Source: Schmidtea polychroa
Lineage: Eukaryota
Assembly: GCA_044892525.1 (NCBI GenBank)
Contig: CM097885.1
Coordinates: forward strand, 30,072,001-30,136,000
Direction of reading: 5' to 3'
Length of the DNA: 64,000 nucleotides
Part shown: one piece after another, positions 1-60,902 of the stretch
How positions within the stretch are numbered: position 1 is the first letter of the stretch
Layout: each line of letters starts with the position of its first letter
The notes under the pieces: model-generated
The model's input: only the letters and a program-made list of their open reading frames with translations
Databases searched by the model: none
What the model was told of the DNA's origin: nothing
Made by a program: the position numbers and the translations under genes

Positions 1-1
1 A

Positions 2-796: not shown

Positions 797-818
797 ATAC
801 GAAGTTTTAAAATACAAA

Positions 819-1283
819 ATGACTCCTTCAATATTAGATTTTTTAAAAACATTTGGAATAAATACAAAAACAAATTTCAATTTAAAAGATTATGCAAATT
901 ATTTAAATTTAAAAATTAAAATATTAATGAATGATGAATTATCAAGTCTGGAGAGTCCCCTGAATATAATAATCAATTATCAAAATTCAAATGAAAAAGG
1001 ATCTCATTGGGTTTGTATATATAAGAAATCTATCTACTTTGATTCTTTTGGGATTAAACCTACTAAAGAAGTTGAAGATTATCTCTTGAGGGGTTCTCCG
1101 ATTGATTCCCCAAATGGTTATACTTTTAACTCTTTACAAGTTCAACCTTTGAATACTAAAATATGTGGTATTTTAAGTTTATATGTTTTGTATAGATTGA
1201 ATAAGGGAGAGGGAAAGGGGCATACGCAGGATTTTGAATCTATAATTCAAGAAATTTATAATGATCTAGAATCTCTACTATAA
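819..1283 (+). CDS. Adenain-like (C5) capsid maturation cysteine protease
   Basis: GSHWVC, YFDSFG and QVQPLNTKICG give the His/Asp/Gln/Cys catalytic set of adenoviral/Polinton proteases. Confidence 0.93.
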   Translation: MTPSILDFLKTFGINTKTNFNLKDYANYLNLKIKILMNDELSSLESPLNIIINYQNSNEKGSHWVCIYKKSIYFDSFGIKPTKEVEDYLLRGSPIDSPNGYTFNSLQVQPLNTKICGILSLYVLYRLNKGEGKGHTQDFESIIQEIYNDLESLL

Positions 1284-1331
1284 GGATTTTTACTATAAGG
1301 ATTTTTACTATATGAATTTACTACTAAAGAA

Positions 1332-2095
1332 ATGGAGCTTCACAACCCTCCGGAAGATAATTTAAAAAAAATGGTAAACATAATGTCAGATAAATATTCA
1401 AGAACTTTATCTATAAATTCAAAAGAATCAGACTTTACTATAAACTTTCAAGATTCAATTAAATTAGATCAAAATTTAAATTATGAATTGGGGCTATTAT
1501 GGTTTTGTGCTTATAATACTATTTTTAATATAACTAAAGATAATAATAAATTTACTATTCAAACTCGTGATGGACATAAACCAGAAATTATAACAATAGA
1601 ACCTGGGGCATATGAGATAAAAGATTTAAATGATATACTTTCTAAAAAAACAAATGAAGGTATTAAAATTAAAATGGATATACCAACTTCAAAATGTGTA
1701 ATGACTTTGAAGAATATAAAAATTAGTTTTTAGATAATTGTTTCTTTCACACAGTTTTAGGATTTAAACCTATGGATATAACAATAAAAGAAGATAAAAT
1801 AATAACATCAGAAAATATTATAAAAATAATAAATACAAACACAATAAATATTCATTGTGATTGTATAACAGGTTCTTATAATAATGGTAAACAAACAAAT
1901 GTTTTATATTCCTTTCCCTCAAACACAGTTCCAATGGGATATAAAATAGTTGAAAGAATGAATCCTCCAAATTATTTACCTTTATGTAGAAAATATATAA
2001 TGGATATTAATTTTAAAATTCTTAATCAAGAAGGAGAATTGATTGATTTTAATGGAGAAGAGATTTCAATGTATTTACATTTGAAACAGGTTTGA
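1332..2095 (+). CDS. Minor capsid (penton) protein, split by a 1-nt frameshift near 1730
   Basis: Motifs SDFTINF..IKL..YELGL, IEPGAYEIKDLN, VLGF, INIHCDCITGSY.NGKQTNVLYSF and NQEGELIDFNGE..YLHLK match Polinton minor capsid. Adding one T to AGTTTTTAG joins ORFs 1332-1733 and 1772-2095 via FLDNCFFHTVLGF. Confidence 0.85.
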
Positions 2096-2119
2096 AGATT
2101 CATTTTAAATTATTAATAA

Positions 2120-3130
2120 ATGAGTTCTTATATTCCATGTAATAGAGGTGGTGGAACAATAAAAACAGGGTTTAATACAGAAGAAATATTAACTTTAACA
2201 GAAAATAAATATATTAATGAAAGAGGTGATTCAATGAAGGGTGATTTAATTTTAAATGGACACAAGATAAAAGAATTATCTTTTCCAACTGATGAAGCTG
2301 ATGCAGTTAATAAGAAATATGTAGATGGTGTTAAAAAATATACTGATTTAACAACAACAAGAATTGAAAGTTCATTAACAACAAAAATTGATTCAATGGA
2401 ATCAAAGCTTAATAATATCGAACAACGATTTAATGATAAATTTGACAAGTTACAAAGTCTGTTAACTGAACAAGTTGTAAAGTTAAATACTACCATATTA
2501 AATTCTAAAGATAAACAAATTATGAATACTAAATTTAATACAATATATAAGATAATAAATGAGATGATTACATCATTTAATAAAAGAATTTCAAATTTAG
2601 AGTCTCATGGAACACACATTAATACCACACATAGTATTAGAAAAAGAGCTGCTGAATTAGAACAGAATAAAACATTATTACCCCATGCATATAAACATTT
2701 TATAGAACCAAGTTTAATAACAACAAACAGTAAAGAATGGGGTGTTTTTATGGTTGTAAAGATTATTGATCCTTATTTCTTTTTTTTTGATGATGATAAT
2801 GAAAGAATGAAATGGTTTGTGAAATGTGATTATAATAGTAAGCTTGAAAAGGGTGATGTTATAATGACTAGTTATGATTTACCACACGGAGATTGGTATG
2901 TTAATACTCATTCACATGGACTACATAAAGTTAAAAGTAAGAATATTATTTTTAAAAGCACACTTGTACAATATATAGATTTAATATTTTATGAAAAAAA
3001 GGTTGATGTTGATGAAGTTCGTAAAGCATTAAGAGAATTGTATAAAGATATCCTCTCAACAAGAGTTTCTTTTGATATCCGAGTATTGGTACCAGATGGT
3101 GCTCAGAAGAATAAAGTCTTATTTTTTTAA
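2120..3130 (+). CDS. Putative virion fibre/spike-like protein
   Basis: N-terminal GDSMKGDLILNGHKIKELSFPTDEADAVNKKYVD resembles phage tail-fibre/trimeric adhesin neck repeats. It is followed by a long heptad-like coiled coil and a distinct C-terminal domain. Confidence 0.55.
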   Translation: MSSYIPCNRGGGTIKTGFNTEEILTLTENKYINERGDSMKGDLILNGHKIKELSFPTDEADAVNKKYVDGVKKYTDLTTTRIESSLTTKIDSMESKLNNIEQRFNDKFDKLQSLLTEQVVKLNTTILNSKDKQIMNTKFNTIYKIINEMITSFNKRISNLESHGTHINTTHSIRKRAAELEQNKTLLPHAYKHFIEPSLITTNSKEWGVFMVVKIIDPYFFFFDDDNERMKWFVKCDYNSKLEKGDVIMTSYDLPHGDWYVNTHSHGLHKVKSKNIIFKSTLVQYIDLIFYEKKVDVDEVRKALRELYKDILSTRVSFDIRVLVPDGAQKNKVLFF

Positions 3131-3138
3131 TTATTAAA

Positions 3139-3735
3139 ATGGAAGAAGTAAGAGAAGAAAAAATTTACCCAGAATTGAGATCATCAGGATATTATTCTTC
3201 CAAGGCCTCGGCTCCCACAGAACTTGAAATTATGAGAGTAAAAGAATTTAAATCAGAAACCTTACATTTACAAGATTTATTAAAGCATTATAAAAAAATT
3301 AAAAATAGATGGAATAAAGGGAATACAGTTTTAAAAGTTATAGGTTATTCTTTAGGATTTGCATCTGCAATATTAACAGTTATTTTACCCATAACTTTAC
3401 CAGTTGTTACTCTTGCACCTGTAATACTTGGAAGTATTTCTGTAGCTGATGGTTTCTTAACTGAAATAGTTTCATTATCTTATACTTCTAAAAAGAAAAG
3501 TTTATATAGAGAAGTTTCTTTATCAATAGAATTAGGAATCTCTAAATTATTTTTATTTCAATTAAAAGCTTTGGAAGATGGAATCCTGACTGACGAAGAA
3601 ATAATGAAATCAAATCAAATAATACAAGATATAAAGAATGAGGTTATAAGATTAAAAAGGGAGGGCATGGTGGCTAATGTTATAAGTAATAAAAAAACAT
3701 CTCGAGAAAAATGGTTAAAGAATTCTTACTTATAA
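3139..3735 (+). CDS. Two-TM membrane protein of the Polinton/adintovirus accessory type
   Basis: Hydrophobic hairpin VLKVIGYSLGFASAILTVILPITLPVVTLAPVILGSISVA, flanked by a basic helix and a C-terminal KALEDGILTDEE motif. N-terminal IYPEL...ASAP. Confidence 0.65.
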   Translation: MEEVREEKIYPELRSSGYYSSKASAPTELEIMRVKEFKSETLHLQDLLKHYKKIKNRWNKGNTVLKVIGYSLGFASAILTVILPITLPVVTLAPVILGSISVADGFLTEIVSLSYTSKKKSLYREVSLSIELGISKLFLFQLKALEDGILTDEEIMKSNQIIQDIKNEVIRLKREGMVANVISNKKTSREKWLKNSYL

Positions 3736-3736
3736 A

Positions 3737-4039
3737 ATGGATGTATTTTTAAAAAAAGTAGATCAAGTTGCTATAGTTGATACTTCTAAATTAAACATGT
3801 TTTTATTAAAAGAAAAAGCTTTAGAGTTTACTAAGATTTTAAGTGAGAATCCTAATTTTACTCAATCTCAAATTTGTAAAATGTTAGGTACTTCGGATTC
3901 TACTATGAGACAAACGATAATAAAAATCTTAATAAGAAATATTCTTGAGATCTGTATACTATTATTTTTCAATCGAAGAAATTCATTAATTAAATCATTA
4001 AATAATGTTTTAGATAAAATAACTTTTGAATCGTTATAA
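3737..4039 (+). CDS. Small HTH DNA-binding protein, probably truncated or chimeric at ~3910
   Basis: NPNFTQSQICKMLGTSDSTMR is a helix-turn-helix-like segment. The sequence after it is the antisense of ORF 3868-4101. Confidence 0.5.
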   Translation: MDVFLKKVDQVAIVDTSKLNMFLLKEKALEFTKILSENPNFTQSQICKMLGTSDSTMRQTIIKILIRNILEICILLFFNRRNSLIKSLNNVLDKITFESL

Positions 4040-4101
4040 TATGATTTTATATTTTCATATATTATTTTTAAATCTTCATTAGTCAGGATTGGATTACTCA
4101 T
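3868..4101 (-). CDS. Small Polinton ORF downstream of polB, unknown function (possibly 3'-truncated)
   Basis: ATG lies 25 nt after the polB stop on the same strand with an A-rich context. It overlaps the convergent HTH ORF. Confidence 0.4.
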   Translation of the reverse strand: MSNPILTNEDLKIIYENIKSYYNDSKVILSKTLFNDLINEFLRLKNNSIQISRIFLIKIFIIVCLIVESEVPNILQI

Positions 4102-4125
4102 TTTTAAATCTAAAAAACAATAGAT

Positions 4126-7100
4126 TCAGTCATGACTGAAAGTCACTGAAAGTCTACTTAACTGATTTTTATTATAATTAAATTCTTCATCAGTTAGATT
4201 TTTTATATATTCTTCTTCAGTGTTGAAACATTTTTTCTCTATAGAGATTGAATTTTTAACTTGACAATATAAAGGTTTGTTATCAAGGTAATCGAATTGA
4301 GGAGGGATCTCTGGGTATATAATCTCAACTTTATAAATATCAAGATCAGTAATCTTTAAATTATAAACTTCATTTATTTTTTCAAGATTTTTTATTATAG
4401 GTATTAAATCATTTCCAATTGGGAGAGTTGTTTTTAAATCACTTAGAATAAATCTTTTATCATCATAATTTGATAGTGATATCTTGGCTGATTCTTGTTG
4501 ATACATATTATGCTTCTCAGATTTAAGTTGATGAACCTCTTCTATTTTATCTTGATGGTTTTCTTTTAGTGCATCTTTATAATCTTGATGAGTGATATTC
4601 TTAGATACTGATTTTTGTATACCTTTACATTTGTTATCTTTAAAAGTTTTTGTGTTTGTTATTATTGGTCGTTCAAATGTATAATCCATTTCTTCCATTT
4701 CCTTAGTTATTGGATTTTTATACATGATTTTAATTGTTTGCTTTTCTGTTTTTGGTTTTTCTGTCTCTTCAAGAGAATATTGTTTAGCTCTAATAAATAC
4801 TGCATCTAATATTATCTTATTTGGTTTTTCATCTTTGAAGGTGAATAATTCTCCAGATGAATTTATTAGTTTTGAAAGTATAGGATTTTCAGCTATTTCT
4901 TTTTTCACATCTTTACCATGTATTTTTAAAAAGAAACTATCTGTATCCATTGCACATAAGCATACTCGATCTCCAAAATGTGGAGTAAAAACATCATAAT
5001 AGGTTTCATACATTTGTAATTTAGAAAGCTCTAAGATTGCAAAGCCCATAGAGATTGGTTTATTATAAGTTTTTTCATTATTTTTTATTTCAATTGCAAC
5101 TAGATTCTTTGAAAATACTTCAGCATTTTTAAATGTAGGTTTTCCAAGCATTCGATTATATCTATTAAAATCCTTTTGAGTATTTGTTAGGAGTTCTATT
5201 CGTGTGTATTTGTCAACATTTTCCATAGTCTTGCCAAAGACTGCATTATTTAAAAGTTTATAAATCACATCTAGATAGATATTTCCAACTCTTTTTGCTT
5301 CATTTCTTTTCTTGATATTTCCTTCTATGAAGTTTTTCATAAATGGTGCTTGTTTGAATTTTATAATATTATGAATCTTCTTCAAACGCATTCCATGAGA
5401 AAGATAAAATTGAAGGAGTCTATAATGACAAAGATAATATTCTCTATCAGTTTGGTCACATAAAAGTTTTATTGCAGTTGCTATAAGTTTTAAGATTTGC
5501 CAAGGTGAAAGTTCTTCTAGATCTATCATTCTTTTTATTGGTGAATAGGGAAGAAATCTAGTTCTAGATTTTATTCTATTTGGGTATTCGAGATCACATT
5601 CTATAGCATATCCAATATCAGAATCTTTAGGGGTTAATAGTATTTTTTTTATAAGAGCATCTAGTTTTTCTTTTTCTTTAGGAATATCAACCCAGGAGAA
5701 CTCACCAGTTGGTAAATGTTGAGACATTACACCCCCATATAGAGCAGTTGCATCACAATAAAATATTTCAAATGGATCGGTTAAACCCTCTGTTATTAAT
5801 TTAGAGTCTTCTGGAGTTTCTATTTTAATATAGTCTGCATCAGTATCTTTAAAATATTTTCTAGTAAGAGTTATGGAATTATTTGCAGTTATTTCTCTAT
5901 CCCCCATTACAGAAGAAATACCCCCTCTAATATTATGTTTAAATACATTAAACATGTCAAGATCTTTTATTAATTCTATTTTTTTATTCTTATCAGAATG
6001 ACTTTCAGAATCCCCCTCAGAAATCCATTTATTATATAACATTATATCCCAAGCTAGAGCTGGCAGTGTTATATAATTATATGGTTTTAATTCAAAGGTT
6101 TTACAGAAGATTTCAAAACAGTCTGCTAAAATATAAACATCAAGGGATAAATACATGTCAGTATATTCTCCAAGGTTTTTACAGTTAAATAATTCCCACA
6201 TTTTATTTGCTCGAGAATATTCTTGATCTGTAATATTTGATAGTTGTAGTTTTGAATAGAATGCTTCTTTCTCTGGTAATTTTGTTTCATTATATCTTTC
6301 AAATGAATTCATATAATCATAAGGGTAGATTCCTTTTGATAGACATGTTGGATATTCTTCTGGAGGAATATTATATTTTATCAAAACTTGCTCTGTTGTA
6401 TATTTAAAGTCTTCTGGTTTCATTGTTTTAGCTATTGCATCTAGAGACATTTGAAGAAAGTTTAACGAGTCTATAAATTTTAAACAACCAAATTGCACAC
6501 ATTTATATTTTTCTTTTGTTAAGCCAATTACCTTGAAAGAGCTTTTAGCATTTACAGCTAGAGCCTTTATAAATAAATGTAAATCATACCCAAAAAGATT
6601 ATGAAATATAACTGGTATAAATTTAGGAGTATAACAATTAAGATTGCAATTTTTATGGGCTGCTCCTCGATAATTATTTTCACTTTTAAAATGATCATGA
6701 TCAGGGACTTTAGTGTTTGAAGATTGTTGTCCTTCATGAAACATTCTTTGTTCCTCTTCTTCAATAATATTAATATAAGACTCAATGTCCGAAGGTCCTA
6801 TGTCCAAAGACTCAAGATCCTCAGGGAGTTGATCCTCAGGATGACTTTCAGAATGTCCTTCAGAATGACTTTCAGAAATTGAAGTTGTAAAGCCCTCAAA
6901 TGGTTGTTTACACATCCAACAATTTGAAGCATTTTCATATTCTTCAAATTGTTCATCTGAGAAATTTATTTTATAATCTGTTTTTAATATATTAAATAAT
7001 TCATGTTCTAAATCATTTACACTATTAACAAAATGATTTAAAGCATCTTCTGAAGAAGTTCCTCTATATGAATATTCTTTAGATTCTATAAGTTCAGGAT

Positions 7101-8928
7101 AATTACTTTTAAAAAATAGTTTATAAGCTGATGGTATTTGTTTAGCAGTTCTTATTGTATAAGATTTTCTATTTTCCCATAGAAAGTTTTTCATAGTCTG
7201 CCATATTGGTCTTGACGTTTGACCTTCGGACGGAGTCCCTTCAGAATAATCCTCAGCCCTGCGCATGCCCTCCACCCTTTCCCAAGAATCTAATAAATTA
7301 TGTTTTTCTATTATTTTTAAATATTCTGTTTCTAAATCGTGTTCTATATTTACTGCTTCAAAGTCACCATATATTACACCTAATGATTCTAATAAATTAG
7401 AAAAATTTTTAAACTGCATGTCTGTGTTTGTAGGCATTTTAATTAAAGCTGGTTTGTTCTTCTCACATAATCTTTCATGTTTAATTATAGCATTTTTTGT
7501 TGTTGAATAATGTAAACATCTTTTACAAGTTGTTCCACCTCTAGCTAGATTTCTTGTACGCATAAAACTTTGAAAGTTTTTTATTAAAATATAATGTTGA
7601 TTCCTTTCTAGGTTTGATAGGTTCCCTTCATCAACCCCTTCAACCTGCCATTCCTCTTCATCTAGTGCTGACTCAAATAGACCTGGGTCCTCCTCCTCTT
7701 CTTGTTGAAGATTTAAATCTTGGCCTGGATCTTCTTCATCTTCATTATAAACATAACCTTGATTAAACTCTCTTTGATCAACACTATTAAATTCTTCTAA
7801 TATTAAAAGATCTATTTCTCTATTTTTATCTTGTTCTAATAATTCTTTATTTGAAATATAAATTGGAATAATATGTCTTATAGAAACATCTTTCTCTGGA
7901 ACATGTTCATAAATATTAAGTTTAATATTATTTAAATTTTCAAATTTTGGAATGTCTTCAATTTTCATTGGGTGTTCAAATCCTTTTGGATAAATTAATT
8001 CATTTTCATATTGTTCATATTTTTTAACTCTTTGAGGATTCTTTGCTTGAGGATGTAAGTGAGCAAGTATTGCCCATTGAAAACATTTGTTATCACCATT
8101 CTGTACATTAATAACATAGCTCGAGTTGAATGGTGTACGGATAAAAGATTGAGGATTTGGGGGTGCTGCTCTCCAATATTCAATTTCTATAGATTGGAAA
8201 GAATGAAATCTTAAATTTGATTCTCCCAATTCTTGTTCTACAACCTCTTGTTGTTCTCCCATCTCTTTACATAAATCATTGATGGTTTTATTTATTCCTT
8301 TTGTTGAGAATAAATATTTAAAACATGATTCAACACTAGAATCTAAAAAAGATGTATCTGCCCCTTCTCCTCTCCAATATTTTGTAGAGATTCTAACTTT
8401 ATATTTTATAATATTAAATCTTGATCGACCAAAAATTCTTATAGCATTATCCATTGAGTTTTTTATGTTTTGCTTATTTTCTCTTATATACTCTGAGATT
8501 GTGGAGGCAAACATTTGATCTCCAAATACATCTATGTGATTGAAGTTGTCCCAATTATATTTTTCTTTTTCAATATGTTCAGGTTCAATATCAGAATCCT
8601 CAGAGTCAGAATCTCTTTTAGGTATTGGTTGTTTGTTTTTTATAGCACATGATTTTACATGTTTTAAATAATAAGATTTTATATTAAATTTTGATTTACA
8701 TATAGGACATTCAAATTTTTCTCTATTTTTAGGAACTCCAATACAACTTTCAAAATGTTTATTATATCCTGAAAGTAAATATCTAACTTTACATTTGGTA
8801 CAAATTTTTGAGTTTGAATTATCAAGTCTATTTGTTTTTAATAAATGAGCTTTTGATTTTTGATGAGATACTAGAGCAGTTCTATTTTTAAAATTTTTTT
8901 GACAAACCTCGCAATTATAAATATTCAT
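4126..8928 (-). CDS. polB: Protein-primed family B DNA polymerase polyprotein (pPolB), 1600 aa
   Basis: ExoI YGDFEA, ExoII FHNLFGYDLHLF, ExoIII YLSLDVYILAD. Polymerase motifs YCDATALYGGVM, KLLNNAVFGK, MDTDSF, RAKQYS, KCKGI and YDDKR. EndoVII-like CWMC...DHDH...YRGAAHKNCNL. N-terminal zinc fingers. Confidence 0.97.
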   Translation of the reverse strand: MNIYNCEVCQKNFKNRTALVSHQKSKAHLLKTNRLDNSNSKICTKCKVRYLLSGYNKHFESCIGVPKNREKFECPICKSKFNIKSYYLKHVKSCAIKNKQPIPKRDSDSEDSDIEPEHIEKEKYNWDNFNHIDVFGDQMFASTISEYIRENKQNIKNSMDNAIRIFGRSRFNIIKYKVRISTKYWRGEGADTSFLDSSVESCFKYLFSTKGINKTINDLCKEMGEQQEVVEQELGESNLRFHSFQSIEIEYWRAAPPNPQSFIRTPFNSSYVINVQNGDNKCFQWAILAHLHPQAKNPQRVKKYEQYENELIYPKGFEHPMKIEDIPKFENLNNIKLNIYEHVPEKDVSIRHIIPIYISNKELLEQDKNREIDLLILEEFNSVDQREFNQGYVYNEDEEDPGQDLNLQQEEEEDPGLFESALDEEEWQVEGVDEGNLSNLERNQHYILIKNFQSFMRTRNLARGGTTCKRCLHYSTTKNAIIKHERLCEKNKPALIKMPTNTDMQFKNFSNLLESLGVIYGDFEAVNIEHDLETEYLKIIEKHNLLDSWERVEGMRRAEDYSEGTPSEGQTSRPIWQTMKNFLWENRKSYTIRTAKQIPSAYKLFFKSNYPELIESKEYSYRGTSSEDALNHFVNSVNDLEHELFNILKTDYKINFSDEQFEEYENASNCWMCKQPFEGFTTSISESHSEGHSESHPEDQLPEDLESLDIGPSDIESYINIIEEEEQRMFHEGQQSSNTKVPDHDHFKSENNYRGAAHKNCNLNCYTPKFIPVIFHNLFGYDLHLFIKALAVNAKSSFKVIGLTKEKYKCVQFGCLKFIDSLNFLQMSLDAIAKTMKPEDFKYTTEQVLIKYNIPPEEYPTCLSKGIYPYDYMNSFERYNETKLPEKEAFYSKLQLSNITDQEYSRANKMWELFNCKNLGEYTDMYLSLDVYILADCFEIFCKTFELKPYNYITLPALAWDIMLYNKWISEGDSESHSDKNKKIELIKDLDMFNVFKHNIRGGISSVMGDREITANNSITLTRKYFKDTDADYIKIETPEDSKLITEGLTDPFEIFYCDATALYGGVMSQHLPTGEFSWVDIPKEKEKLDALIKKILLTPKDSDIGYAIECDLEYPNRIKSRTRFLPYSPIKRMIDLEELSPWQILKLIATAIKLLCDQTDREYYLCHYRLLQFYLSHGMRLKKIHNIIKFKQAPFMKNFIEGNIKKRNEAKRVGNIYLDVIYKLLNNAVFGKTMENVDKYTRIELLTNTQKDFNRYNRMLGKPTFKNAEVFSKNLVAIEIKNNEKTYNKPISMGFAILELSKLQMYETYYDVFTPHFGDRVCLCAMDTDSFFLKIHGKDVKKEIAENPILSKLINSSGELFTFKDEKPNKIILDAVFIRAKQYSLEETEKPKTEKQTIKIMYKNPITKEMEEMDYTFERPIITNTKTFKDNKCKGIQKSVSKNITHQDYKDALKENHQDKIEEVHQLKSEKHNMYQQESAKISLSNYDDKRFILSDLKTTLPIGNDLIPIIKNLEKINEVYNLKITDLDIYKVEIIYPEIPPQFDYLDNKPLYCQVKNSISIEKKCFNTEEEYIKNLTDEEFNYNKNQLSRLSVTFSHD

Positions 8929-9012
8929 TTTTTAAAAAAATTTTTTTATTGGATACTCTGTTTTTAGATTTTTAAAATATTTATATTTATCAAACCTATC
9001 ATTTTACCAAAC

Positions 9013-9027
9013 CTGGCAGCTTGCCAA
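9013..9027. promoter_or_regulatory. NFI/CTF consensus site CTGGC-N5-GCCAA upstream of polB
   Basis: CTGGCAGCTTGCCAA matches YTGGC(N5)GCCAR. Function is not demonstrated. Confidence 0.35.
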
Positions 9028-9041
9028 TCGATAATCATATA

Positions 9042-9283
9042 AGTAGTGGATATAAGACCCACACCTGCGCGCCCGTACTGAGACTTGTGAACTTCCATTT
9101 CTTCTCCTATTTTCTCTATATTTTTTGGGTTTAAGGCTGAAAATGAGAGGGTATATGTTTTCAAAATAAAGGTAAAAAAGGATTAAAAGTGAAAAGAATT
9201 AGGGCCTTTTTTACCATAAAATAAGGGGTTGAATGGCCACTGATCAGAGGGGGTGTGCGGGTGTGGGTCTTATATCCACTACT
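9042..9283. repeat. Polinton terminus with 33-bp inverted repeat (9042-9074 / 9251-9283)
   Basis: AGTAGTGGATATAAGACCCACACC at 9042 is the exact reverse complement of the last 24 nt before 9283. The match extends to 33 nt with 3 mismatches. Confidence 0.95.
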
Positions 9284-12200
9284 GGCCAAGGACCAAATTT
9301 AAAGCCGTTCAGAGTATATTGCGTAATTCAAGACAATGTGTTAGTTATTACGCAATATACATTACTATTTAAGATTGATCACTCTGTGTTAATATTAATA
9401 AATCTTTAGATGGAACCAATTGTTGTAACTGGCGACCACGCCGAAAATGTTCACACAATGACGACTCGAGGAGAAGGGGAAAAGTCTGCAAGAGACGCGC
9501 TACCGAAACTTGCACAAGAACTCTTGGATATGGAAATTAGAAGATACGACGGCAGATGTACCAAGGAAGCTGAAAAATGGATACAGGCAATTGATGATTG
9601 GATCGCTAGGAATGATTTGAAGAGGACAGAAGCATTCGATTTTCTTCTTTGCGATGAAGCGGCTACACTGTGGAAAAATTTCAAAACAGAAAAAACAACA
9701 GTTAAAGCTGCTAAAGAATGGTTTTCCGAAACATTTACAATTAAATTGACTATTATAGACAAGATTAAAGAACTTGCTGCAATTAGACAAGAAGAAAATG
9801 AGAGATATTCAACCTTCGAAATCAGGGTATTGAAATTAGTGAGTGAAGTTATTAATTCAGGAATGAGGGTAGAGGAGATTGCCAATGAAATTATAACTGG
9901 ACGCGTCAGAGACAGAAGATTAAAGGATGCTCTAACAATGAAACCATCGATGACGGCAGAAGAACGAAATCAACTGGCCAAAATTTACGAAAAAGTGGAA
10001 TCAAAAGAAAAGGCGGAAGAAATTATGGTAATAAAGAAGAGTAGTTACGCGGAAGCAACAAGGAGAAGGAATTCAGAAACGTTTACAAGAGAAACAAATG
10101 GAAGTAACACCAATATATTAAGAAGCCAAGGAAATTACAGAAGAGAGAATTTACATGATAATTCGTATAACAGAAATAACGAAATGAATCATGCAGTCGA
10201 ACGGAATGTGCAGAGAAGGACACCAACGGTTTCGCTTAAACACATTGCCAAGAGATTATACAATCGATCTAGAGGCCTTCCTGATCCAAGAAACGGCGAA
10301 TTACAGTCAGGCCAATGCTTTTGCTGTGGAGAATATGGACACAGAAGATATGAATGTCCACTAAAAGATAAATGTTTGATGTGGTAAGGGAGGGCATAAT
10401 TTTCGTGATTGTTATTTATTAAGAAAGAAAGAACAACAAAACTATGAGAACAAGAAAATGATAGCTTGTGTGCATGACGAAGAAAACGGAAGAAATTACT
10501 CGGATGATGCAGAAACAAGAGAATCAATTATCCATGATGTGGAAACTGAAAAAAAACACGAGGAACTCTATAGCATACATTTTGTCAATGGGGTTGTAAA
10601 GGAAGAAAATCGGAATGACAGAACAGAGAGAATGAGGTATGCGACATTAGATGGAAGAGAATGGAGCAAGATGATGATAAATGATGTTGAGATTGAGATG
10701 TTGTGGGATTCTGGAGCTTCAATTACAGTGATGAATGAGGAAACATGGAATAAAATTGGCAGTCCACGTTTAAGCAGCAGTGAATTCAAAATATGTGAAG
10801 TTTTTCCAGGAACTCAAAAACCACAGGGATGTACTGAAGTAAATGTTTATTGGCACAATAAGATGAGGACTCTCAAAATAATTGTTATCAAAAATATATT
10901 TCCAGGTTTTATTGGTGGGATAGATACTTTGAAAGCATTTGGAGTGCAGTTGATGGAAATTAACAATATCGAATTCGAGACAAAGATTAGCAATTATACT
11001 GATGACGAGAGAAGACAAAAAGCAAAAAAGGAATTGGGAAGAAATGAATTGCCAACAATTAACAAATTATTAGATGAATTCGGATCAATATTTATGGCAG
11101 CCAGATTTGATTTAGGATTCACAAGAATCGTAGAGCACGAAATTAAAACATCTCGGAATCCAACAATGCAATTTCCAAGACGACAACCGATGCATCTAGA
11201 ACAGAAAATTGAAGATATGATAAAAGAGTTAACAAAAGCTGGAGTTATAAGACGCTGTAAAAGTCCATGGAGCTCTCCATTGGTTGTAGTAGGAAAGAAA
11301 GACGGCTCAATTAGAATGTGCGTAGACTATCGAGAGTTGAATAAGATGACAGAAAGAGAATCTTTTCCTATGCCCAACATATCCCAATTACTCGATAACC
11401 TATCAGGATCTAAATTCTTTTCTTCTTTAGATCTTGGACAAGCATACTATCAGGTCACATTAGCAGAAGAAGCACAAGAAAAAACGGCTTTTAGTTCCAA
11501 AGAAGGTCAATTTTGTTTCAATCAACTTCCATTTGGATTATCAACATTTCAGCGATTAATGCACACGATGTTAGAGGGTATCTTGTTTAATGGAGCAATT
11601 ATTTATTTAGACGATATTCTGGTATATGGCAATGACCAGTCTGAACATGATGAGCGATTACGAGAAGTTTTCAAAAGAATAAAAAAACAGGACTAAGAAT
11701 AAATCCGGAGAAGTGCGATATTTATAAAACCAAATTAAAATTCCTTGGTCACACCGTCAGTGAAGATGGAATACAGACAAATTCAGGGAAGATCAAGTCA
11801 ATTACAGAAGCGACGAAACCACAGTGTGCTAAATAACTTCGATCTTTTCTAGGTTTGACAAATTACTATAGACGATTTGTCAAAGATTATGCTAAAATAG
11901 CAGCACCCCTACATGCAGCAGCGTCAAGTTGTGATAAAACAATCGAATGGTCAGAAAATTGTGAAAACAGTATTAAAACAACTTAAAGAAGCTTTAACAC
12001 AAGCACCTATTCTTGATTTTCCTCGTATAGACCGTAAATTTATATTGGATACTGATGCCAGTTTTGAAGCTATTGGAGCAGTGTTGAGTCAAATAAAGGA
12101 AGACGGTTCCGAAATAGTTATCGCATACGGTTCAATAAATCTGACGGCCCATGAAAAGAGATACTGCGTAACCAGGAAAGAGTTATTGGCATTGCATGAA

Positions 12201-13090
12201 TATGTTTTATATTTTAGACAGTATTTATACAGGAAAGAATTCGTGGCTCGAACAGATCACAAAGCTTTAGTATTTATGAACACGAATAAAAAAGCAATAA
12301 GTCCACAATTTCAGACATGGATGGCTAATCTATCGGAATACGATTTCCAATTGAAATACCGGAAAGGTGAAGAACATGCAAACGTAGATGGATTATCAAG
12401 GATCGAGGGTAGTTTATGTGCACAGTGTCAGACAGCACATGTACAACATAAACAAGAAAGGTCAAGAGTAAGATATATCAATTTGATACAAAAAACACAG
12501 ACAATGTTAGAAATTATGGAAGAACAGAAGAAAGATAAATTGTTCCAGGAAGTGATGGAAATTCTTAAGAATCAGATAGATTTTCGGAAGGAATCGTTTC
12601 TAAATAGATTTTTATTCAGATATAAAGATCGATTAAAGATATCGGATGATATGCTTGTATTGGAATCAGACAAAATAGATCTAGTGATAATCCCAAAAAG
12701 CTATCAATCTAAACTAGTGATTAAAATACATGAAGATTTATGTCACGTTGGAATTAAGAAACTGTTTCATTATTTGGAAGGGAATTTTTTCTGGTCGAAA
12801 ATGCAAGAAACCGTTAAAGAGATAGTAAAACGATGTGTCACATGTGCAAGACGGAAAATAGACCAAGGGAGGACAAAGGAAATTTTAATTCCACACGAAA
12901 GTTCTGAATTTCTAGAACAGATTGTGATGGATGTTGCTTTCATGGAGAGAACTTCAACCGACAAAAAGTATGTTATCGTTATTATTGATAGGTTTAGTAA
13001 ATTAGTAAGTTTAACGGCTACAGCAAACCAAGATGAAAAAAACAATTTAAAGACGCTAATGAACAATTGGATTTACAAATATGGTAAACC
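9284..13090 (+). mobile_element. Ty3/Gypsy LTR retrotransposon copy 1 (5' LTR remnant 9284-9430, PBS, gag, pol truncated in integrase)
   Basis: 9284-9430 matches the 3' LTR at 58421-58557. PBS TGGCGACCACG at 9430. Gag CCHC knuckle CFCCGEYGHRRYEC, protease LWDSGA, RT YLDD, RNase H DTDAS/TDHKAL, integrase HHCC and IDRFSK. Confidence 0.95.
9410..10387 (+). CDS. gag: Gypsy Gag (second zinc knuckle frameshifted)
   Basis: CX2CX4HX4C knuckle. A second knuckle CLMC(G)KGGHNFRDC is broken at ~10380. Confidence 0.85.
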   Translation: MEPIVVTGDHAENVHTMTTRGEGEKSARDALPKLAQELLDMEIRRYDGRCTKEAEKWIQAIDDWIARNDLKRTEAFDFLLCDEAATLWKNFKTEKTTVKAAKEWFSETFTIKLTIIDKIKELAAIRQEENERYSTFEIRVLKLVSEVINSGMRVEEIANEIITGRVRDRRLKDALTMKPSMTAEERNQLAKIYEKVESKEKAEEIMVIKKSSYAEATRRRNSETFTRETNGSNTNILRSQGNYRRENLHDNSYNRNNEMNHAVERNVQRRTPTVSLKHIAKRLYNRSRGLPDPRNGELQSGQCFCCGEYGHRRYECPLKDKCLMW

Positions 13091-13097
13091 ATCGTGA
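10458..13097 (+). pseudogene. pol: Gypsy Pol (PR-RT-RH-IN), frameshifted and 3'-truncated
   Basis: ORFs 10458-11696 and 11913-13097 carry PR/RT and RH/IN motifs. There is a frameshift at ~11690, a stop at ~11833 and a break at 13090. Confidence 0.9.
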
Positions 13098-14573
13098 GCG
13101 GAAGCAACTATGTCAGAATCAAAATCTTGTGCTTGGTCCTAGCGAATCATCAGCACAATAAGGCGCAACTCCTAGCTCGACCAATGCACGATTAACTGGG
13201 GTTATTAATTTTAAAATTTCCTCAGTTGCCAATACTAAACTACTCCATCTAGTCTTTATATCTAAGAACAAACTCAAACAATTTTAAAATTTCGCTTCTT
13301 AAAGATTATTTTCTAAAGAATTTTATAATTTTCCTCATTTCATCTATCGCAATTTTATTTGTTTTTGAAGCTCTATTATTTCTAGTTCTGAATGTAAAAA
13401 ATCCTCGTTTTCCAGTTCATCTATTATTTCATTAGATTCCGCTTGATTTTCATCATTTTCAAAAAATTCTATGACATCATCACTTTCGATAGCATCGACA
13501 TTACCAAGTTCATTATGTTTTGAGTAAAAGGTTTCAATGGCGGCTAAATGAAAAGCGTGCTTATAGCGTAATTGGCTTTCAGCTGATATGGTTTTGCCGT
13601 ATTTTACCATTACGTTTGCGCCATCGTGAGCGGAAGCAACTATGTCAGAATCAAAATCTTGTGCTTGGTCCTAGCGAATCATCAGCACAATTTTGAACAT
13701 TCCTTTTGGCCTGAGGTTTTTTTATCATGGCAGTTGTAGTTCCACCTTTAATTGATATCTTATTTGTGCATAATTCGACTTGACATTACGCAATTTCTAA
13801 AGATATTTTTTTGAAATAATCCCAAATTTTCGATTTGTTTGTTGCCATTCTGGATTTGAAAATATTTATAAAATATCACGATCAAAATAAAAGCAAACTT
13901 AATTTTTAATTATGTATATGTCGTAGGCAAATGGTAATTTTAGGAAAATAACATTTGGCTAGGCAAATGCCATTTGCCTGGTCAAATAGCTTTAGCTATT
14001 ATTTCATTTTGAAGCACATTTTTCTCGTAAAGATATACAATTTTCATGGGGAATATCACTTTGTTCAAAACTTATTGACGACACTTTTGTTAGTTCATTT
14101 CGAGTAAACCAATTTTTTAACACACACGTTAACACACCAATGCTATTTTCCTAGTCAAATGGAAATGAAATAATAGCTAAAGCTATTTGACCAGGCAAAT
14201 GTTATTTTCCTAAAATTACCATTTGCCTACGACATATACATAATTATTATTTTAATTAATAATTATACTTACGATGTATAACTTGTGTTCTGTGATGAGC
14301 GCGTTAAAGTGTAAAACATTTCATTGAATTAAATACAATTTCTTAAAATAAAAGAAAATCTTACAATTTGACTTGCTTAGTTAAGAAAAATCGAAAACAT
14401 TTAATATTAATATAGCAACCAATGTCAAAATTTCTGATATTTTTTGCTTGAAAAAAACATTTTATCTAAAATAACTACTCGGTTACTTGACGAAATTATC
14501 CGGTTAACGAATAATGACAAATACCTGAAAATAGACGAGTACTCGGTTACTCGATTATTGGTTTAGTCATCTA
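13089..14573 (-). mobile_element. Internally deleted hAT transposon (BED finger and DDE fragments)
   Basis: Minus strand reads MATNKSKIWDYFKK...C..IKGGTTTAM (BED finger, ~13848-13720) and DIVASAHDGANVMVKYG...HAFHLA (hAT second Asp/CxxH region). A candidate terminus TAGATGACT... lies near 14573, with AACCGAGTA subterminal repeats. Confidence 0.7.
13908..14245. mobile_element. MITE with ~80-bp terminal inverted repeats
   Basis: AATTATGTATATGTCGTAGGCAAATGGTAATTTTAGGAAAATAACATTTG...GGTCAAATAGCTTTAGCTATTATTTCA is mirrored at 14163-14245. Confidence 0.75.
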
Positions 14574-14889
14574 ATTATTATTCATTTAAATTAATAATAT
14601 TGATGGTATTATTCTACGAAACTCAGCGTAACCCAGTAGTTTCATCAAACCTCATTCTACGTGGTGCATTAGATAACTCCCTAGACTAGGATTTTAGGTC
14701 AATAGTGACGTTGTTACTATAAAGAGCGGTAATTTTAGTGACTACATATTTACCTTTGCCATGTTTGTGATGTTTCTTAGGTGAAAGAGAAAGGCAGTTT
14801 TGCCATTTTCGTAAATATTATGTCGTTAAGCCTAGGGTTATCAAATTCATTAGGTTGAAAGGCACTGAAAATAAGGATGTCACTCAACA

Positions 14890-15920
14890 CCCACAATTGG
14901 TCTACCAGGACCTTAGTCCACCGCATTTACCGATTTACACTTGAATAAGGAGAGTATAGACAAGACCGGATGTCAGTTTTCAATGACGAAAGAAAAGGAT
15001 GACCGATTGAAATTTCCGATGAGAAACGACAATTGTTGGTCTCTCTAAATGCAGAATCAGCATCAGTGAACTGACGAGACGTCTTCACGTGAGTTTTTTT
15101 GCCCCATGCTTTTATAAAGGATTTCGGCATCAGGAAACACTGCTCGCGCTTTGTTCCTAGATTCATTAGTGGTGAAATTGTTGCTAATCGCCTTGCTTAA
15201 TACAAATCCAACCTGATACTTTACGACAAATTTGATGGTGCTTTTCTTCAAGATATTGTGACTGAAGATGAGACTTCCAATAGCTTCTATGTTCCTGAGA
15301 GCAAGAGCGATTGCAAAGTGGCGAATCCCAAATAAATCAGTCTCTCAAAAGCTCCACAGCGGGACATCTCATTGACAGGTTACCATGCTAACTTTGTTCT
15401 GGAACATTCGCGGCATCATTAAACCGGAATTTCTGGATTTTAAAGCCACGATGAACTCTCAATATAATAGTGAACTCTTGTATGATGTGCTGAAGCGTCT
15501 GTGAAAGTCACCAAACATGCCTCTCTTGTTGCAGCATAACAACGCTTGAATTCATATTTCTCCACGACCCCAACAGAATAGTGTGGCTTCCCACTTGTGG
15601 CGCACCCTCCTTAAACAGGGATCTTGTTCCCAGTGATTTTGTGCCATTCCGTCATCTCAAATAACATCTGAAAGGCAACCATTTTCAATCTGCAGAGGAA
15701 CTAAAGGAGAAAGTGGAGAGTGTCTTTACTTCCATTGCTCCAAATTTCTTTGAAAATTAATTTGTGGAACTTCTTCGCTGGAAAAATGCTTGAAGAAAAA
15801 TGGCTTGTATATTAAAAAATGAGCTATTTTTGGAGTATGTAACTGTAATAAAAATTTGAACTTGATTTGACTTTTTATTCTTGCCGAGTTCAGAGATTTA
15901 CCACGTACGACTTGGATATC
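14890..15920 (+). mobile_element. Degenerate mariner (DD34D) transposon
   Basis: FLQDIVTEDET...YVPESK (~15243), LLLQHNNA*IH (~15522) and HPP...DLVPSDF (~15603), with multiple stops and frameshifts. Boundaries approximate. Confidence 0.8.
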
Positions 15921-16816
15921 TTATGCAATTAATACATTTTATTATAAATTTCTTATTACATCGTACAAGATTTGTATGTAATAGGCTTTGTCCGAACCTG
16001 AAGGATTTACATTTATTAAATATCTTGTAACAATTGGAGTTCTTTTCTATATATCCATTATTTTTACGTATAGTGATTAAAGATTAAAATATAAAACAAT
16101 AACAATTTTATATAAAGTAACAAAAATAAAATTATTTTAAAATGACATTTACAAGGGGTGTATCAATTTATTCCGAAATTTTCACATAGCATATTTTTTT
16201 AACTTCAGCGATGTTTTATTTAAGTTTACATTATATAATTTTTCCAATTAATTTCCAATTAATTTTGATTTTACCATTTTCTTAATAAATTATTAAATTT
16301 TTCCCATCTTCATTATAAAACTTAATTGTTTAAACTTCATGTAAGTTTATTTCCTTGAACAACAGTTTCTGATGTTTTATCTCCTGTACATGATTCCGCA
16401 TCATTCAAATATTCTTTATGTACCCGGGATACAACAAAACTGCAGAAGATTTTCGTTGTTATTACGTTTTAAAAGTTTGGATTTCGTATATTATGAAGCA
16501 TTTTGGATTATCGATTCTTTGTTGGACAGTAATTTAATTAAATTTATTGAAATTAATCATTGATTAATATTTAAAATTTTTAAATCATTTAAAAACAAAT
16601 GAAATTTTATAGATTAATAAGAAAAGAATAAATGAATTAAGAATATAGAACTAATTTTTATTAGAAAATAGAAATTATAAAAAATAAATATTTTTTATTT
16701 TGTTATTTTATTAAAAGCCAAAATGAATGATGAAAGTTGTTTAAATATTAGTCCGAAATAATACTTTAGAAAGTAAATATTTAAATATAAAATAATTTTT
16801 TAAATAAAATTGCATA

Positions 16817-18741
16817 ATGGGTGTCAAAGGGCTTATGACTTATATGTTAAATGACGGTTCTTCATTAAAACCTTGTAAATTAAGAAATACTAAAGTTATT
16901 ATTGATGGAAATAATTTATTGCATTCAATTCATCATGCACACAAATCAGTATGGGAATTTGGTGGCGAATATGAATCATTTGATAAATCTCTAAAGAAAT
17001 TTTTTCATAGATTACAAGAATGTGAATTAGAGCCATTTGTTGTGTTTGATGGTTGTTATGATGCTAAGGTAACTAATTCCATTATTTTATTAATATTTTT
17101 ACAAAAACCGCTAATGATACAATTTAGGGCAGTAAAATAAGAACAACTATATCTCGATTTAAAGATAGATTATTTACATGTTCCCAATTGAATAAGCAAT
17201 ACCCATCTAACGGGTATTTGTTGCCTATGTTAGCCGTATCAACAATGATATCAGTATTGGTGGAATTGAATATAATGTTTATAACTTGTCACGAGGAAGC
17301 CGACAAAGAAGCCGCTGCATTAGCTAATTTTTTCAATTGTCCTGTTATCAGTAATGACTCCGATTTCTTTATTTTCCCATTAAATTGTGGATTTATTCCG
17401 GTTGAAAGTTTAAATTTTATCCCCGTAAAAGAGATCTGTCAATGTTGTTCGAATTCTTCTCATTTCTATGTATCTTGTGCAATATTTCATCAGTCTAATT
17501 TCTATCTGAAATCATCAAACAACCTGCAAATCAATGTGAATTTTATGCCTTTATTTTCAACACTGATGGGAAATGATTTTATATCTGTGAATTTTTTCGA
17601 GAAAATCTTCCTCCAAAATTCCAATGGTCGTAAGAGCAAAAAGATGGGTAAAACCACATCGAAAGTTGCAATGTTGTTAAATTGGCTGATGGAATTCGAT
17701 ACTATCGACAGCGCCATTGACAGAGTCGTCCAGTCAGTGAAGGAGAGTCAAAGAATTTCAATGAAAAACTTTATCAAATCATCAGTGGAACAGTATAATA
17801 TCAACCAATCAAATTTAGTCGATTCAATTAAATCGAATTCTCCAGTGATTCCAAATGAAAGCAGTATATTTGCCAGCTTGCCGAATTTCATTAATATCCG
17901 ATTAAACCGATCGATTTTGTCGCCGATTCTCATTAATAGTCTAATATCAGAGAAAGTGTTCCTGCCTGCGTATGTTGAATCGATTAGTGACGATTCCATT
18001 CATTCGGTCTCTCGTGGGATTAGAAATCGATTTTATAGAGTTCTTATGGAATTGGCCAACAAATCATCGGGATCGATAGTCGAATATGCGAGAAAAGAAA
18101 AATCCATTTTTAAAACGCGAATTGCAATCGATGAAATCATCGGAAACGATTTGACCAATCCGCTGCTGGATTGGCTGAAAATCGATAATTCTTTCGGATT
18201 CATTGAGACGATGATTTTGTACTGGATAGATTCCTCGGCCAATAAGGAGACGAGTTGGAAATTCTATTCGATTCTAGCGGGAATCGCTGCAGTTTTCATT
18301 CAGTTGGCCTGGAAATCGGAACTGGAAATGGATCCCACCGGATCGGATTTCAAGAGGGAACAATACAACAGCCCGATTTACAAGTTCTTCAATCGTCCGA
18401 TTGTCAGTAACGTCAACAAGTTCCAAATTCGACTCGTTCATGGGTTCAATGAGTTGCAATCGGTTTATTTCTCATTGGTCCAATTGCTGAACTTGGATCC
18501 GGCATTTGATCCGGATCTTGTTCCATCGCCACAGAGTTTGTTCTGCGGGAAATTGAATTACAATCTTTGTGTGGATTTGAAAAAGCGAAAGAATTGTTGG
18601 AATTTTCTCTCTCAGTTGTTTGAATCGTTTCCGTGTTGCAAAGTGCGGGATCGATTTCTGGAAATTATCGATAAATCTCGAAAATTTTCTCCGGATTTTG
18701 ATTTGTTTCTGGGAAATTGTCAAAATGTGATAAATAAATAA
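16817..18741 (+). CDS. ASTE1: Asteroid homolog (XPG/PIN-domain nuclease family), 2 exons: 16817-17068 and 17128-18741, ~621 aa
   Basis: MGVKGL, VIIDGNNL, FGGEY, FVVFDG, EEADKEAAALA and CPVISNDSDFFIF. The 59-nt GT-AG intron has a CTAAT branch point and joins in phase 0. Confidence 0.9.
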
Positions 18742-51291: not shown

Positions 51292-51439
51292 TTAAAATCT
51301 CTTATTTATGAGTAGGGAGATATAAATAACCTTCTGTGTCTTACCTTTCCGCTAGATTAAATATGTAATATTTAACTAAAAGATTTTGAAGTAATTTGAA
51401 GCACTATAGTAAGAGAGTAAGGTCAATGTGAAAACCTAT

Positions 51440-58300: not shown

Positions 58301-58557
58301 ATTTGTTTCAGATCATCAAGTTGAATTGCAATATCCAGATACGACGCGGCACCGACGAATCGAATGGTTAAAGAGATGGCATCAATCTTATGAAGGGGAG
58401 AGTAATGATATTACATTAGAGGTCAAGGACCAAATGTGAAGCAGTTCAGAGTATATTGCGTAATTCAATACAATATGTTAGTTATTATGCAATATTTAAG
58501 AGTGATAACTCTGTGTTAATATTAATAAATCTTTAGATGGAACCAATTGTTGTAACT
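55379..58557 (+). mobile_element. Gypsy copy 2 (same family as 9284): decayed PR-RT-RH-IN, PPT and 3' LTR 58401-58557
   Basis: Closely similar to 10661-13090. PPT GAAGGGGAG at 58392-58400. LTR AGTAATG...GTAACT is 157 bp. Confidence 0.95.
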
Positions 58558-60902
58558 GTATTGATTATGACATCTTCATTAGTCAAATGTCTAATAAGAT
58601 TCGAATATTAATATTATAATGAAGTACTGTTTATAATATGATATATTTGTACAACAAAATCTATCTAGATTGTCAAATGCTACAACACAAGATATTATTT
58701 GATAAATTTCAATGTAAGTCATTTCAACGAACTGCATGAATACGTATAATATGAAACATTTTGGATTTTTGCAAATTTCAAAGCTGAACATTTCTGTAAT
58801 TCCACATTTCTCATTCCTAAAATGTAAATGGTTCAATGCCAAAAATTGCAATATTCAATAAAATAATGATCTCCATATAATAATAACAATAAAAAATTGG
58901 TATTTTGTAAGTAATAAATTTTTGTATTTAAAAATTTCGTAGGATTTTTGATGTTGGCCTATTTTCACCTCCTTGACTATTTGCGCACCTCAACTGCCGG
59001 ATTGCAATTATGACTGAAATAAAAACATCCACAACATCAAATTGATTGAACCATATTCGGCACAAGTGATGGTGGTACAGTGTTTAATGAAGGCCACTAT
59101 AGACATAACATTCAATAACTTTATAAAATTGTTTTGTTGGGTTATTAATATTTTTAAACAGATACTATTGACTCTTTGTGTTCTTAATACTAAATAAAGA
59201 AGCCACAACACAATAAATTTCCTTCAGTAATCTGTATTTACACTAGTCAATACACACACTAGATTTATATGATCGGCACTTTTTTTTATTATAATAGGTA
59301 GATGGCCCAATGGATTACCATTTCAATAGAGACTGTTCACTTAATTATTTCCAAAACTCCTTTAATCACACTTAAAATGTTTCTTAAGTATCGATCATGT
59401 TATCAGATTTTCCCATTCGCTGTCTCTTATAGGATACTCACGATATCAGTCATCTCACTTGATTTAATTTTCAACTGAACTTTTGGAAAAAATTAAATGA
59501 AATTTAGCATGACAAGCTGACTGATGTTAAGCTCTGGAATAGTGTTTTATATTGGACTGATCAATTGATTTCAAATAAATAATTGTAGTTGTTGAATGTC
59601 TTTGTATATAAGCACCCATCTTTTTAAAATTATTGTATTCGTATTCATCTTATCATTTGCTATTAGCTCAATTTTGTCTTCCCAAAAGAAATATTAGTTT
59701 TTTCATTTAAATTTTTTGAGTTTTGGCAAATTGTGCATTTTTATTGTTTTACACATAATTCTTTGTACATTTTGCCTCAATTTTTACAACACTAACAATT
59801 CATTAAAGTAATTTAATATAAATAAGCTAATAGCTGTAGAAAAATTCCATAAAATAGAAAAAAGGACATGATTACAAATTATAATATGGATGAAGCACCG
59901 CCGACATTTAATGTTCCATAAAATCATGCGTGGGTTTAAAGGGTTCTAAATCAGTTGTGATAAAAACCTTAGACTTCGGCAAGACTCCTACAGTGTTATT
60001 TTGACTTGTTCTGCGTATTATAACTAAAAATTCGGTTTTCTCAATTATACTAAACTTGATTACATCGCCTTGCATTTGATAAAAATTTTATTGGATGTGT
60101 TCGCAGGATTTGCATACTAAGAAAAATGAGTAATAACTGCCTACAAATTATTGTCAAGGTTTTATAAGAAAGTATCTAAATTTCACATCCTTAATGATTT
60201 ATATGGATTTTAATTGCAAAATTATTTCAAAAATATGTAAGTTATTTTTAATTAAAAAATTTTTAATTAACTATTTAACTATAATTAACCCTATAATTAA
60301 CTATTTTATCAAAGATTACGTAAAATATTTTTTAACAATAATTTTTACAAACATTTACAAATGAGTATTTTCTTAGGTGGTGTATGTCATCACGTGTTTG
60401 ATTTATTATAGAGATTATATTCCTCGGGTTTGTATGTTTTAATCAATTTTTCTACTCTTTCTGGAATCCTATAATAAAGTGACAGGTGTAACTGGTTATA
60501 AATTTTTAGCACACAGGCGAGTTTGTAGGGATATTATAATTTATTGATTATTTTTTTATATAATACTGTTTTTATCAAATACAATGCGATGCTTAAACTC
60601 AATTTAAATAAAAATATTAATAGCATTTGCCTTTTGTTTTTATGTCAGCATTTTATTATTCGATAAAATAACTTTAAATATTAAATTTTAAATACCTTTT
60701 AAAATTAAATTTATATAACAATTTAAAAACACACTGGATAAATCCTGTGCCGAAATATCGTGTATCTTATATATTGTTTTGTTCTATGGTCTTACAAATA
60801 TTAATATGGAAATAATTTAATGACCTTATGCATCAAAAACTCGGAATTTTTCTAAAGAATTAACAAAAATATGTATAGGTTGGTAAAATTAAAACAATTT
60901 AT

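Follow-up and report, generated by a model that had tools for sequence, protein, structure and literature searches.

The 64,000-nucleotide stretch of Schmidtea polychroa DNA analysed here (hereafter the window) contains the right end of a Polinton whose terminal sequence recurs, inverted, a short distance inside the element, delimiting a unit of 242 bp at 9042-9283. The question raised by this locus is whether the unit is a regular part of the Polinton end, and what it might then do, or whether it is a separate small element, a by-product of copying, a self-priming hairpin or an accident. Taken as a whole, the best explanation is that the unit is a palindrome forming the outer part of the TIR and serving as a local fold-back origin, to which we assign a probability slightly above one half (about 0.55).

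The genes lying to the left of the unit are those of a Polinton. An adenain-like (Peptidase_C5-type) protease is encoded on the forward strand at 819..1283; it matched the protease ORFs of pPolB loci at 33-38% in tblastn searches and obtained a score of 0.96-0.97 in the ESM Atlas, with PF00770 in 15-62% of the cluster members. On the same strand, a capsid gene probably belonging to the penton/PZ family occupies 1332..2095 and is split in this copy into two ORFs (1332-1733 and 1772-2095), both of which match adjoining stretches in other pPolB loci (for example L015 and L073), the gene being also 27% similar to an ORF in L109, a complete element. The DNA polymerase B of protein-primed type (pPolB; 1600 aa, with N-terminal C2H2 fingers) is encoded on the reverse strand at 4126..8928, its ATG lying 113 bp inward of the inner arm of the unit. 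It has 2535 homologues, the best being 50% identical and many carrying PF03175, for which the Pfam search gave no direct match in the window protein itself. The intervening stretch at 8929..9041 (reverse strand), which is multi-copy in the sequencing runs, may include the pPolB promoter and represent the inner part of the TIR, as suggested by a TATA-like 8-mer read by eye at 8985-8978. The element continues leftward beyond the window: the portion present lacks the major capsid gene, and no tblastn match to the integrase, MCP or ATPase of L109 was obtained in 1-9283. A sigma-70/terminator scan, PDB sequence searches and one protein comparison also returned nothing. The Polinton features found are thus pPolB, the adenain-like protease, the split penton/PZ-like gene and an end motif of the (AGT)2//(ACT)2 type (as in the available text of PMC8097293), located at 9278-9283, exactly at the insertion junction. 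A pPolB gene beside the end, an adenain protease and a penton-like gene are shared with animal adintovirus-type Polinton/Maverick elements, as are the (AGT)2//(ACT)2 end motif and insertion with a probable 6-bp TSD (PMC8097293 and PMC4196379, in the sections available).

The right boundary of the element was defined by comparison with a paralogous empty site. The Polinton is inserted in the 5' LTR of a Gypsy element, the rest of which lies at 9284..9431 (forward strand; 87% to 58421-58558) and is followed by gag and pol. The first 148 bp to the right of 9283 correspond to 58421-58558, in the 3' LTR of another Gypsy copy, and this LTR, intact at 58402..58558 on the forward strand, extends 19 bp further to the left than the Polinton-side match. 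The same LTR start was seen as a loose end before 9284 in four of four runs. Since an intact LTR is present in the window and its start precedes 9284 in the runs, 9283 is the exact insertion junction, 19 bp into the Gypsy LTR, in agreement with the earlier note on this DNA, which had taken it for the Polinton terminus. A candidate right copy of the 6-bp target duplication, GGCCAA, is found at 9284..9289 (forward strand), where the empty site reads GGTCAA (58421-58426); this comparison concerns the right end, which is the only one in the window. The 242-bp unit itself is flanked by CATATA on the left and GGCCAA on the right, which do not form a TSD, and what precedes 9042 differs from the LTR start; therefore the 242 bp did not insert here alone, as the same note had gathered from the flanks.

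Some features of the Gypsy copies were recorded during this comparison. The LTR (about 157 bp) is itself bounded by AGT...ACT (58402-58558, 9284-9431). The second copy is located at about 55380-58558, and the place where the first one breaks off is occupied by a 600-bp piece bounded by a 71-bp perfect direct repeat (13089-13691).

The terminal 24-mer occurs exactly twice in the 64-kb window, at 9042-9065 (forward strand) and 9260-9283 (reverse strand), any match to it being obtained in 0 of 100 shuffles. By BLAST, the arms 9042-9074 and 9251-9283 are identical at 30 of 33 positions and enclose a spacer of 176 nt; ungapped extension brings them to 9042-9081 and 9244-9283, with 34 of 40 positions identical and six different. 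The inner arm (9042..9081, forward strand) thus begins with (AGT)2 as an inverted copy of the terminus, and the outer arm (9244..9283, reverse strand), which ends with (ACT)2, is the true terminus of the element. Past 40 nt the similarity is no longer significant, 653 and 386 of 2000 shuffles being equally good, and neither this test nor a fold of the spacer revealed a residual palindrome between the arms; an Rfam search of the spacer gave no match of note (best E 0.72). Decay of CpG was considered as a cause of three arm mismatches, which are all transitions at CG steps, and was set aside because three changes are too few. The folding energy of the 242-bp unit is -48.4 kcal/mol on the forward strand (z -7.4) and -41.4 kcal/mol on the reverse strand (z -6.9), and the excess stability comes entirely from the arms (z 0.11 for the spacer alone). 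The inverted copy of the terminus, and the ability of this single end to fold on itself, had both been proposed from the sequence and are borne out by these tests. A second inverted repeat of 11 bp, proposed at the same time, does exist at 9171-9181 and 9205-9215 but is weak, given that at least 11 bp was reached in 13 of 1000 spacer shuffles and that sibling contigs carry C>T at both 9205 and 9215, the outer bases of its right arm, leaving 9 bp. It is probably incidental.

Sibling copies were examined in sequencing runs of the same organism, nine of ten of which hold part of the stretch; contigs were compared at 80% likeness in four runs (X1, X2, X3 and X6), their coordinates being a reading of the reported end offsets. 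The inner arm and the spacer are continuous in one diverged contig each of X1 and X2 (depth 320 and 381, respectively); in a further contig of each run the spacer runs on into the outer arm as far as 9283 (depth 308 and 372). The low-depth Gypsy contigs among those listed have depths of 26-49, contig depth not being a copy number. None of the contigs listed for the four runs spans both arms or the 9041|9042 junction. The siblings possess their own substitutions and indels, and the runs come from three studies. Because the structure is common to diverged siblings, it is neither an assembly artefact nor a one-off rearrangement, an outcome that the earlier note had itself considered. Such an accident could explain why the window holds a single copy of the unit, and is hardly credible in view of these siblings, of arms that differ from each other and of the same design in unrelated elements (see below).

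The runs also bear on whether the end of a larger element is here a captured non-autonomous mini-Polinton, that is a MITE-like or defective-interfering unit, the earlier note having suggested a 242-bp mini-replicon of the latter kind. In its favour, the end motif is present on both sides and sibling contigs begin or end within 1-4 bases of 9042, and at 9283. In addition, one low-depth X3 contig has 29 different letters to the left of 9041, a loose flank whose sequence is absent from the window, and another X3 contig ends at 9039 and departs from the window sequence after 9179; these two contigs could represent the left TIR or a different subfamily, and would be equally compatible with a free end. 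(X3 has no coverage at 9198-9258, a gap that was not counted as absence.) Against it, the unit is covered about 640-1830 times at the four positions listed for X1, X2 and X6, which is the same order of magnitude as in the leader next to it (357-3872) and far lower than in the Polinton body (bins mostly at 10^4-10^5). The unit is, like MITEs and non-autonomous Polintons, short, non-coding and bounded by inverted ends; unlike them, it shows no TSD and no excess copy signal over the adjacent leader, its left flank differs from the LTR start of the empty site, and in relatives it is integral to the TIR.

Relatives were collected by a pPolB-alignment search, which yielded 28 viral loci and 57 loci from genome bins. 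A stretch of 300 bp or more preceding the pPolB frame was available in 56 loci, which were scanned for inverted units bounded by end motifs; 29 loci with a shorter upstream stretch or an open frame were left out. Such a unit was found upstream of pPolB in at least 4 of the 56: L064 (AGTAGT type, 129-bp unit) and L035, L072 and L080 ((AC)3A type, units of 159, 142 and 123 bp, respectively). All four have the same layout, in which host sequence is followed by end motif, spacer, inverted end motif, a short leader and pPolB; in most other scanned loci no terminus is near or captured. Units with the AGTAGT motif of at least 13 bp were not produced by chance in 20 shuffled sets.

Several candidates were discarded: a 167-bp one in bin G005 extends outward as part of a larger repeat, a second match in L072 likewise extends outward, and those in L083 and L043 lie inside larger palindromes, not at ends. 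Bin G005, which has many Polintons with long TIRs (149 pPolB matches), showed no such terminal unit in 39 stretches. Searches by sequence gave no match to the exact 21-mer in viral contigs; the single match in metagenome contigs (L001) is a chance match in an ORF of an unrelated contig, with neither inverted copy nor spacer. Degenerate terminus patterns had no match in viral contigs and one unconvincing match in five bins, and nothing was found by single-protein locus searches. Dozens of GTDB MAG bins (L030-L086) contain eukaryote-type Polinton contigs, probably by host contamination.

Two of the relatives are complete elements. G001:C67 (L109; 19,408 bp) has TIRs of 234 bp that both open with a 159-bp palindrome, and carries integrase-, capsid- and ATPase-like ORFs (these names being a reading of ORF matches). 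G001:C9 (L112, 291-15427) is bounded by a perfect TAGGAA TSD and has a 174-bp palindrome at both ends; the flanks of its unit show no TSD, as in the window, and the target duplication lies outside the palindrome. Further AC-type ends were found at C9 169-282 and in C50. A local inverted copy of the terminus is thereby present in 10 termini of 8 elements, window included (18-20 matches out of 20); the nine termini of the seven other elements, all obtained in the searches for pPolB relatives, open with a palindrome of 114-174 bp. Scores of 10-13 out of 20 were obtained for 7 IMG/VR elements (11 ends, either termini or ends of contigs), which lack the design; the palindrome is therefore dispensable. 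Since the two complete relatives carry the design as the outer part of both TIRs, the mini-replicon suggestion is not upheld; outside TIRs the unit was not encountered in the relatives, and no free mini-copies were found in their bins, which are small and incomplete samples of the hosts. Capture of a mini-Polinton is accordingly quite improbable.

Other arrangements were noted in these loci. At L112 169-464, 2 bp separate an inserted AGT-type Polinton from the palindrome that ends an AC-type one, placing two palindromic ends back to back, and targeting of ends is possible. L109 contains, at about 8350-17350, an internal tandem duplication of about 4.7 kb, real or due to an assembly error, in which the integrase and the C-terminal portion of pPolB occur a second time. 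In L015 (1-623 and 15381-16003), AGTAGT motifs are found about 310 bp inside a longer inverted repeat, corresponding to nested ends or to insertion into a palindrome. L085 has at 3-149 a 147-bp unit with inverted arms of 18 bp, located 152 bp upstream of a pPolB-like frame and devoid of a known end motif.

The quality of the palindrome varies among these ends from near-perfect (C9 79/87, C67 73/83) through L064 (50/66) to the window, the most decayed of the set, where only the outer 40 bp pair. The design of the window is presumed homologous to that of the near-perfect relatives, its spacer (9082..9243), now without residual palindrome, being probably the decayed centre. We are thus confident that 9042-9283 is the outer part of the TIR, in the form of an old, partly decayed terminal palindrome with pairing left in its outer 24-40 bp alone; its place within the TIR would account for the missing TSD around the unit. 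The terminal palindrome is most likely a fixed end design, common to the subfamily of this element and to several further lineages of animal-type pPolB Polintons. By analogy with both TIRs of the two complete relatives, the left end of the window element would carry it as well.

Co-variation between arms was analysed in the ACACACA group (6 termini from 5 elements). Of 34 arm pairs, 18 had changed on both sides, and pairing was retained in 96.6% of cells, in a structure that was drawn from one of the analysed sequences; none of 500 shuffles was as high, controls with slid arms gave 26-61%, and there was one cell of G-T type. Such co-variation can equally come from copying between arms without any benefit. 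A palindrome without function could arise time and again when synthesis switches template onto the nascent terminus (copy-back), spread to both TIRs by end repair and then decay. Almost exclusively two-sided changes with a single G-T type cell are what copying would be expected to leave, and the gradient from near-perfect to decayed palindromes and the absence of the design from many elements also agree with it. So does the pPolB phylogeny (45 rows, FastTree), in which the four palindrome-bearing rows occur in separate places without clustering and imply at least 3 changes; because this tree has one long branch (L144) and omits several short-coverage loci, it was used only to establish that they do not form one tight clade. 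Two observations make this functionless origin unlikely: the centre decays while the outer arms stay matched, and the inner arm carries an extra base near position 20 in two separate pPolB clades (the L035 group and L064), which blind copying should erase.

This extra base (at position 26 in L080) is on the inner arm in all seven termini that have one, and the palindrome has the same orientation in both TIRs of the two complete elements; there is therefore no flip-flop among the integrated copies examined. Orientation bears on the reading in which the palindrome is a self-primer, as in parvoviruses or the virophages and PLVs of Halocafeteria, the folded 3' end being extended and the closed end later opened. 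The 3' terminal base does pair, without overhang, with the base that opens the inner arm, beyond which the template continues, and such a scheme corresponds to Model D in the available text of bioRxiv 10.64898/2026.07.28.741278. Hairpin transfer predicts both flip and flop, yet a single orientation was observed; the termini compared are integrated copies, among which a filter by the integrase could hide flop ends. The protein-priming end motifs (AGT)2 and (AC)3A are moreover kept (motifs as in the available text of PMC8097293). On balance, self-priming as the main role is slightly less likely still than functionless copy-back.

The local fold-back origin that we favour is a tentative proposal, held at a little under even odds, and concerns the way in which a single strand regains a duplex end. 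To our knowledge the replication mode of Polintons has not been shown, the accepted end-to-end racket having been deduced from sequence. A panhandle needs about 31 bp. According to the available text of PMC11886824, the displaced strands of adenovirus and PRD1 are currently modelled as end-to-end panhandles, and direct evidence for panhandles is still lacking; protein-primed strand displacement restarting via a panhandle is described there and in PMC4196379, likewise available in part. In the mechanism proposed here, strand-displacement synthesis or excision would free a single strand in need of a duplex end to restart. Its 3' end would pair with the inner arm 100-240 nt away and not with the far end 15-20 kb away, re-forming a short duplex origin at which the terminal-protein/pPolB complex could initiate. 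Synthesis would then run round the loop into the body and give a full strand with the end orientation unchanged, and repeated copying through the fold would keep the arms matched. On the other strand, the 5' end would pair with the inner arm and leave a long 3' tail, trimming of which would free the unit; comparable tail trimming has reportedly been seen in engineered adenovirus minichromosomes, and nothing in this analysis shows a product freed in this way. The fold of the 3' end on the inner arm leaves a 3'-OH on template and so is also a possible self-primer, a consequence that the earlier note had not considered. This should invite wasteful snap-back synthesis, which counts against a function as local origin, and extension from the folded 3' end would yield molecules of foldback type; a yeast linear plasmid is reported to have a hairpin derivative.

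Hairpin telomeres of parvoviruses and densoviruses and of poxviruses are imperfect terminal palindromes of 100-250 nt. The Polinton end resembles them in having an imperfect terminal palindrome able to fold back, a parvovirus-type trait reduced in the window to its outer 40 bp, and differs by its single orientation in integrated termini and by the protein-primed polymerase of the element. For adenovirus and PRD1, intramolecular pairing of inverted ends was proposed to restore the origin, and for the adenovirus minichromosome end pairing was proposed to restore end identity (PMC11886824, in its available text, the latter citing Wang et al. 1991); these pairings are end-to-end across the genome or engineered, whereas that of the window is natural and local.

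The closest parallel is provided by the endogenous virophages of Halocafeteria seosinensis and PLV subtype 4, for which the available text of bioRxiv 10.64898/2026.07.28.741278 describes terminal palindromes inside TIRs and proposes a role of the hairpin in replication. As in these ends, the palindrome lies in the TIR next to the TSD in G001:C9 and C67, and next to the candidate TSD copy at the right end of the window element. The Halocafeteria palindromes measure about 52 nt, were searched with a gap of at most 10 and are reported there preferentially without pPolB. Those described here measure 114-242 bp and belong to pPolB-encoding, animal-type Polintons with protein-priming end motifs, bearing in mind that the window element and its relatives were found through pPolB, which they encode; in contrast to the short loop of Halocafeteria, the centre of the window unit is unpaired over 162-176 nt. 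Palindromic repeats are also marked in a figure legend of 10.64898/2026.10.13.758929, a source available in part. What sets the window element apart from animal adintovirus-type Polintons is a TIR whose outermost part also includes the terminus in inverted orientation. The terms "hairpin" and "palindrom-" do not occur in the main texts, supplements aside, of PMC8502044, PMC8097293 and 10.1101/2023.08.22.554363, and no description of a palindromic end design for pPolB animal Polintons was found in the literature, although supplements, Repbase or subscription papers may hold one.

It is conceivable, and to our mind rather doubtful, that several pPolB animal Polinton lineages possess, by independent gain or by inheritance from an ancestor, an asymmetric end folding on itself and serving as local origin and sometimes as self-primer. 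If so, a second replication route would exist beside the end-to-end panhandle, linking protein-primed and hairpin-ended replicons, and foldback satellites with Polinton ends would be explained as snap-back products. The finding of palindromic ends in pPolB Polintons bears on whether panhandles exist and runs against the recent suggestion that terminal palindromes accompany non-pPolB replication. A recurrent, co-varying and orientation-fixed palindrome also offers a concrete DNA end of 120-240 nt for comparing protein priming, self-priming and integrase processing.

For annotation purposes, such ends resemble MITEs without TSD and can be mis-called. Elsewhere in the window, a MITE-like inverted repeat is located at 13896-14257, with arms of 82-103 bp at 82-85%. 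The window further contains a host gene with an XPG_I_2 domain at 16817-18741, which we take to be asteroid-like, and two ORFs at 51404-52725 with an apparent resemblance to a broken hAT-type transposase.
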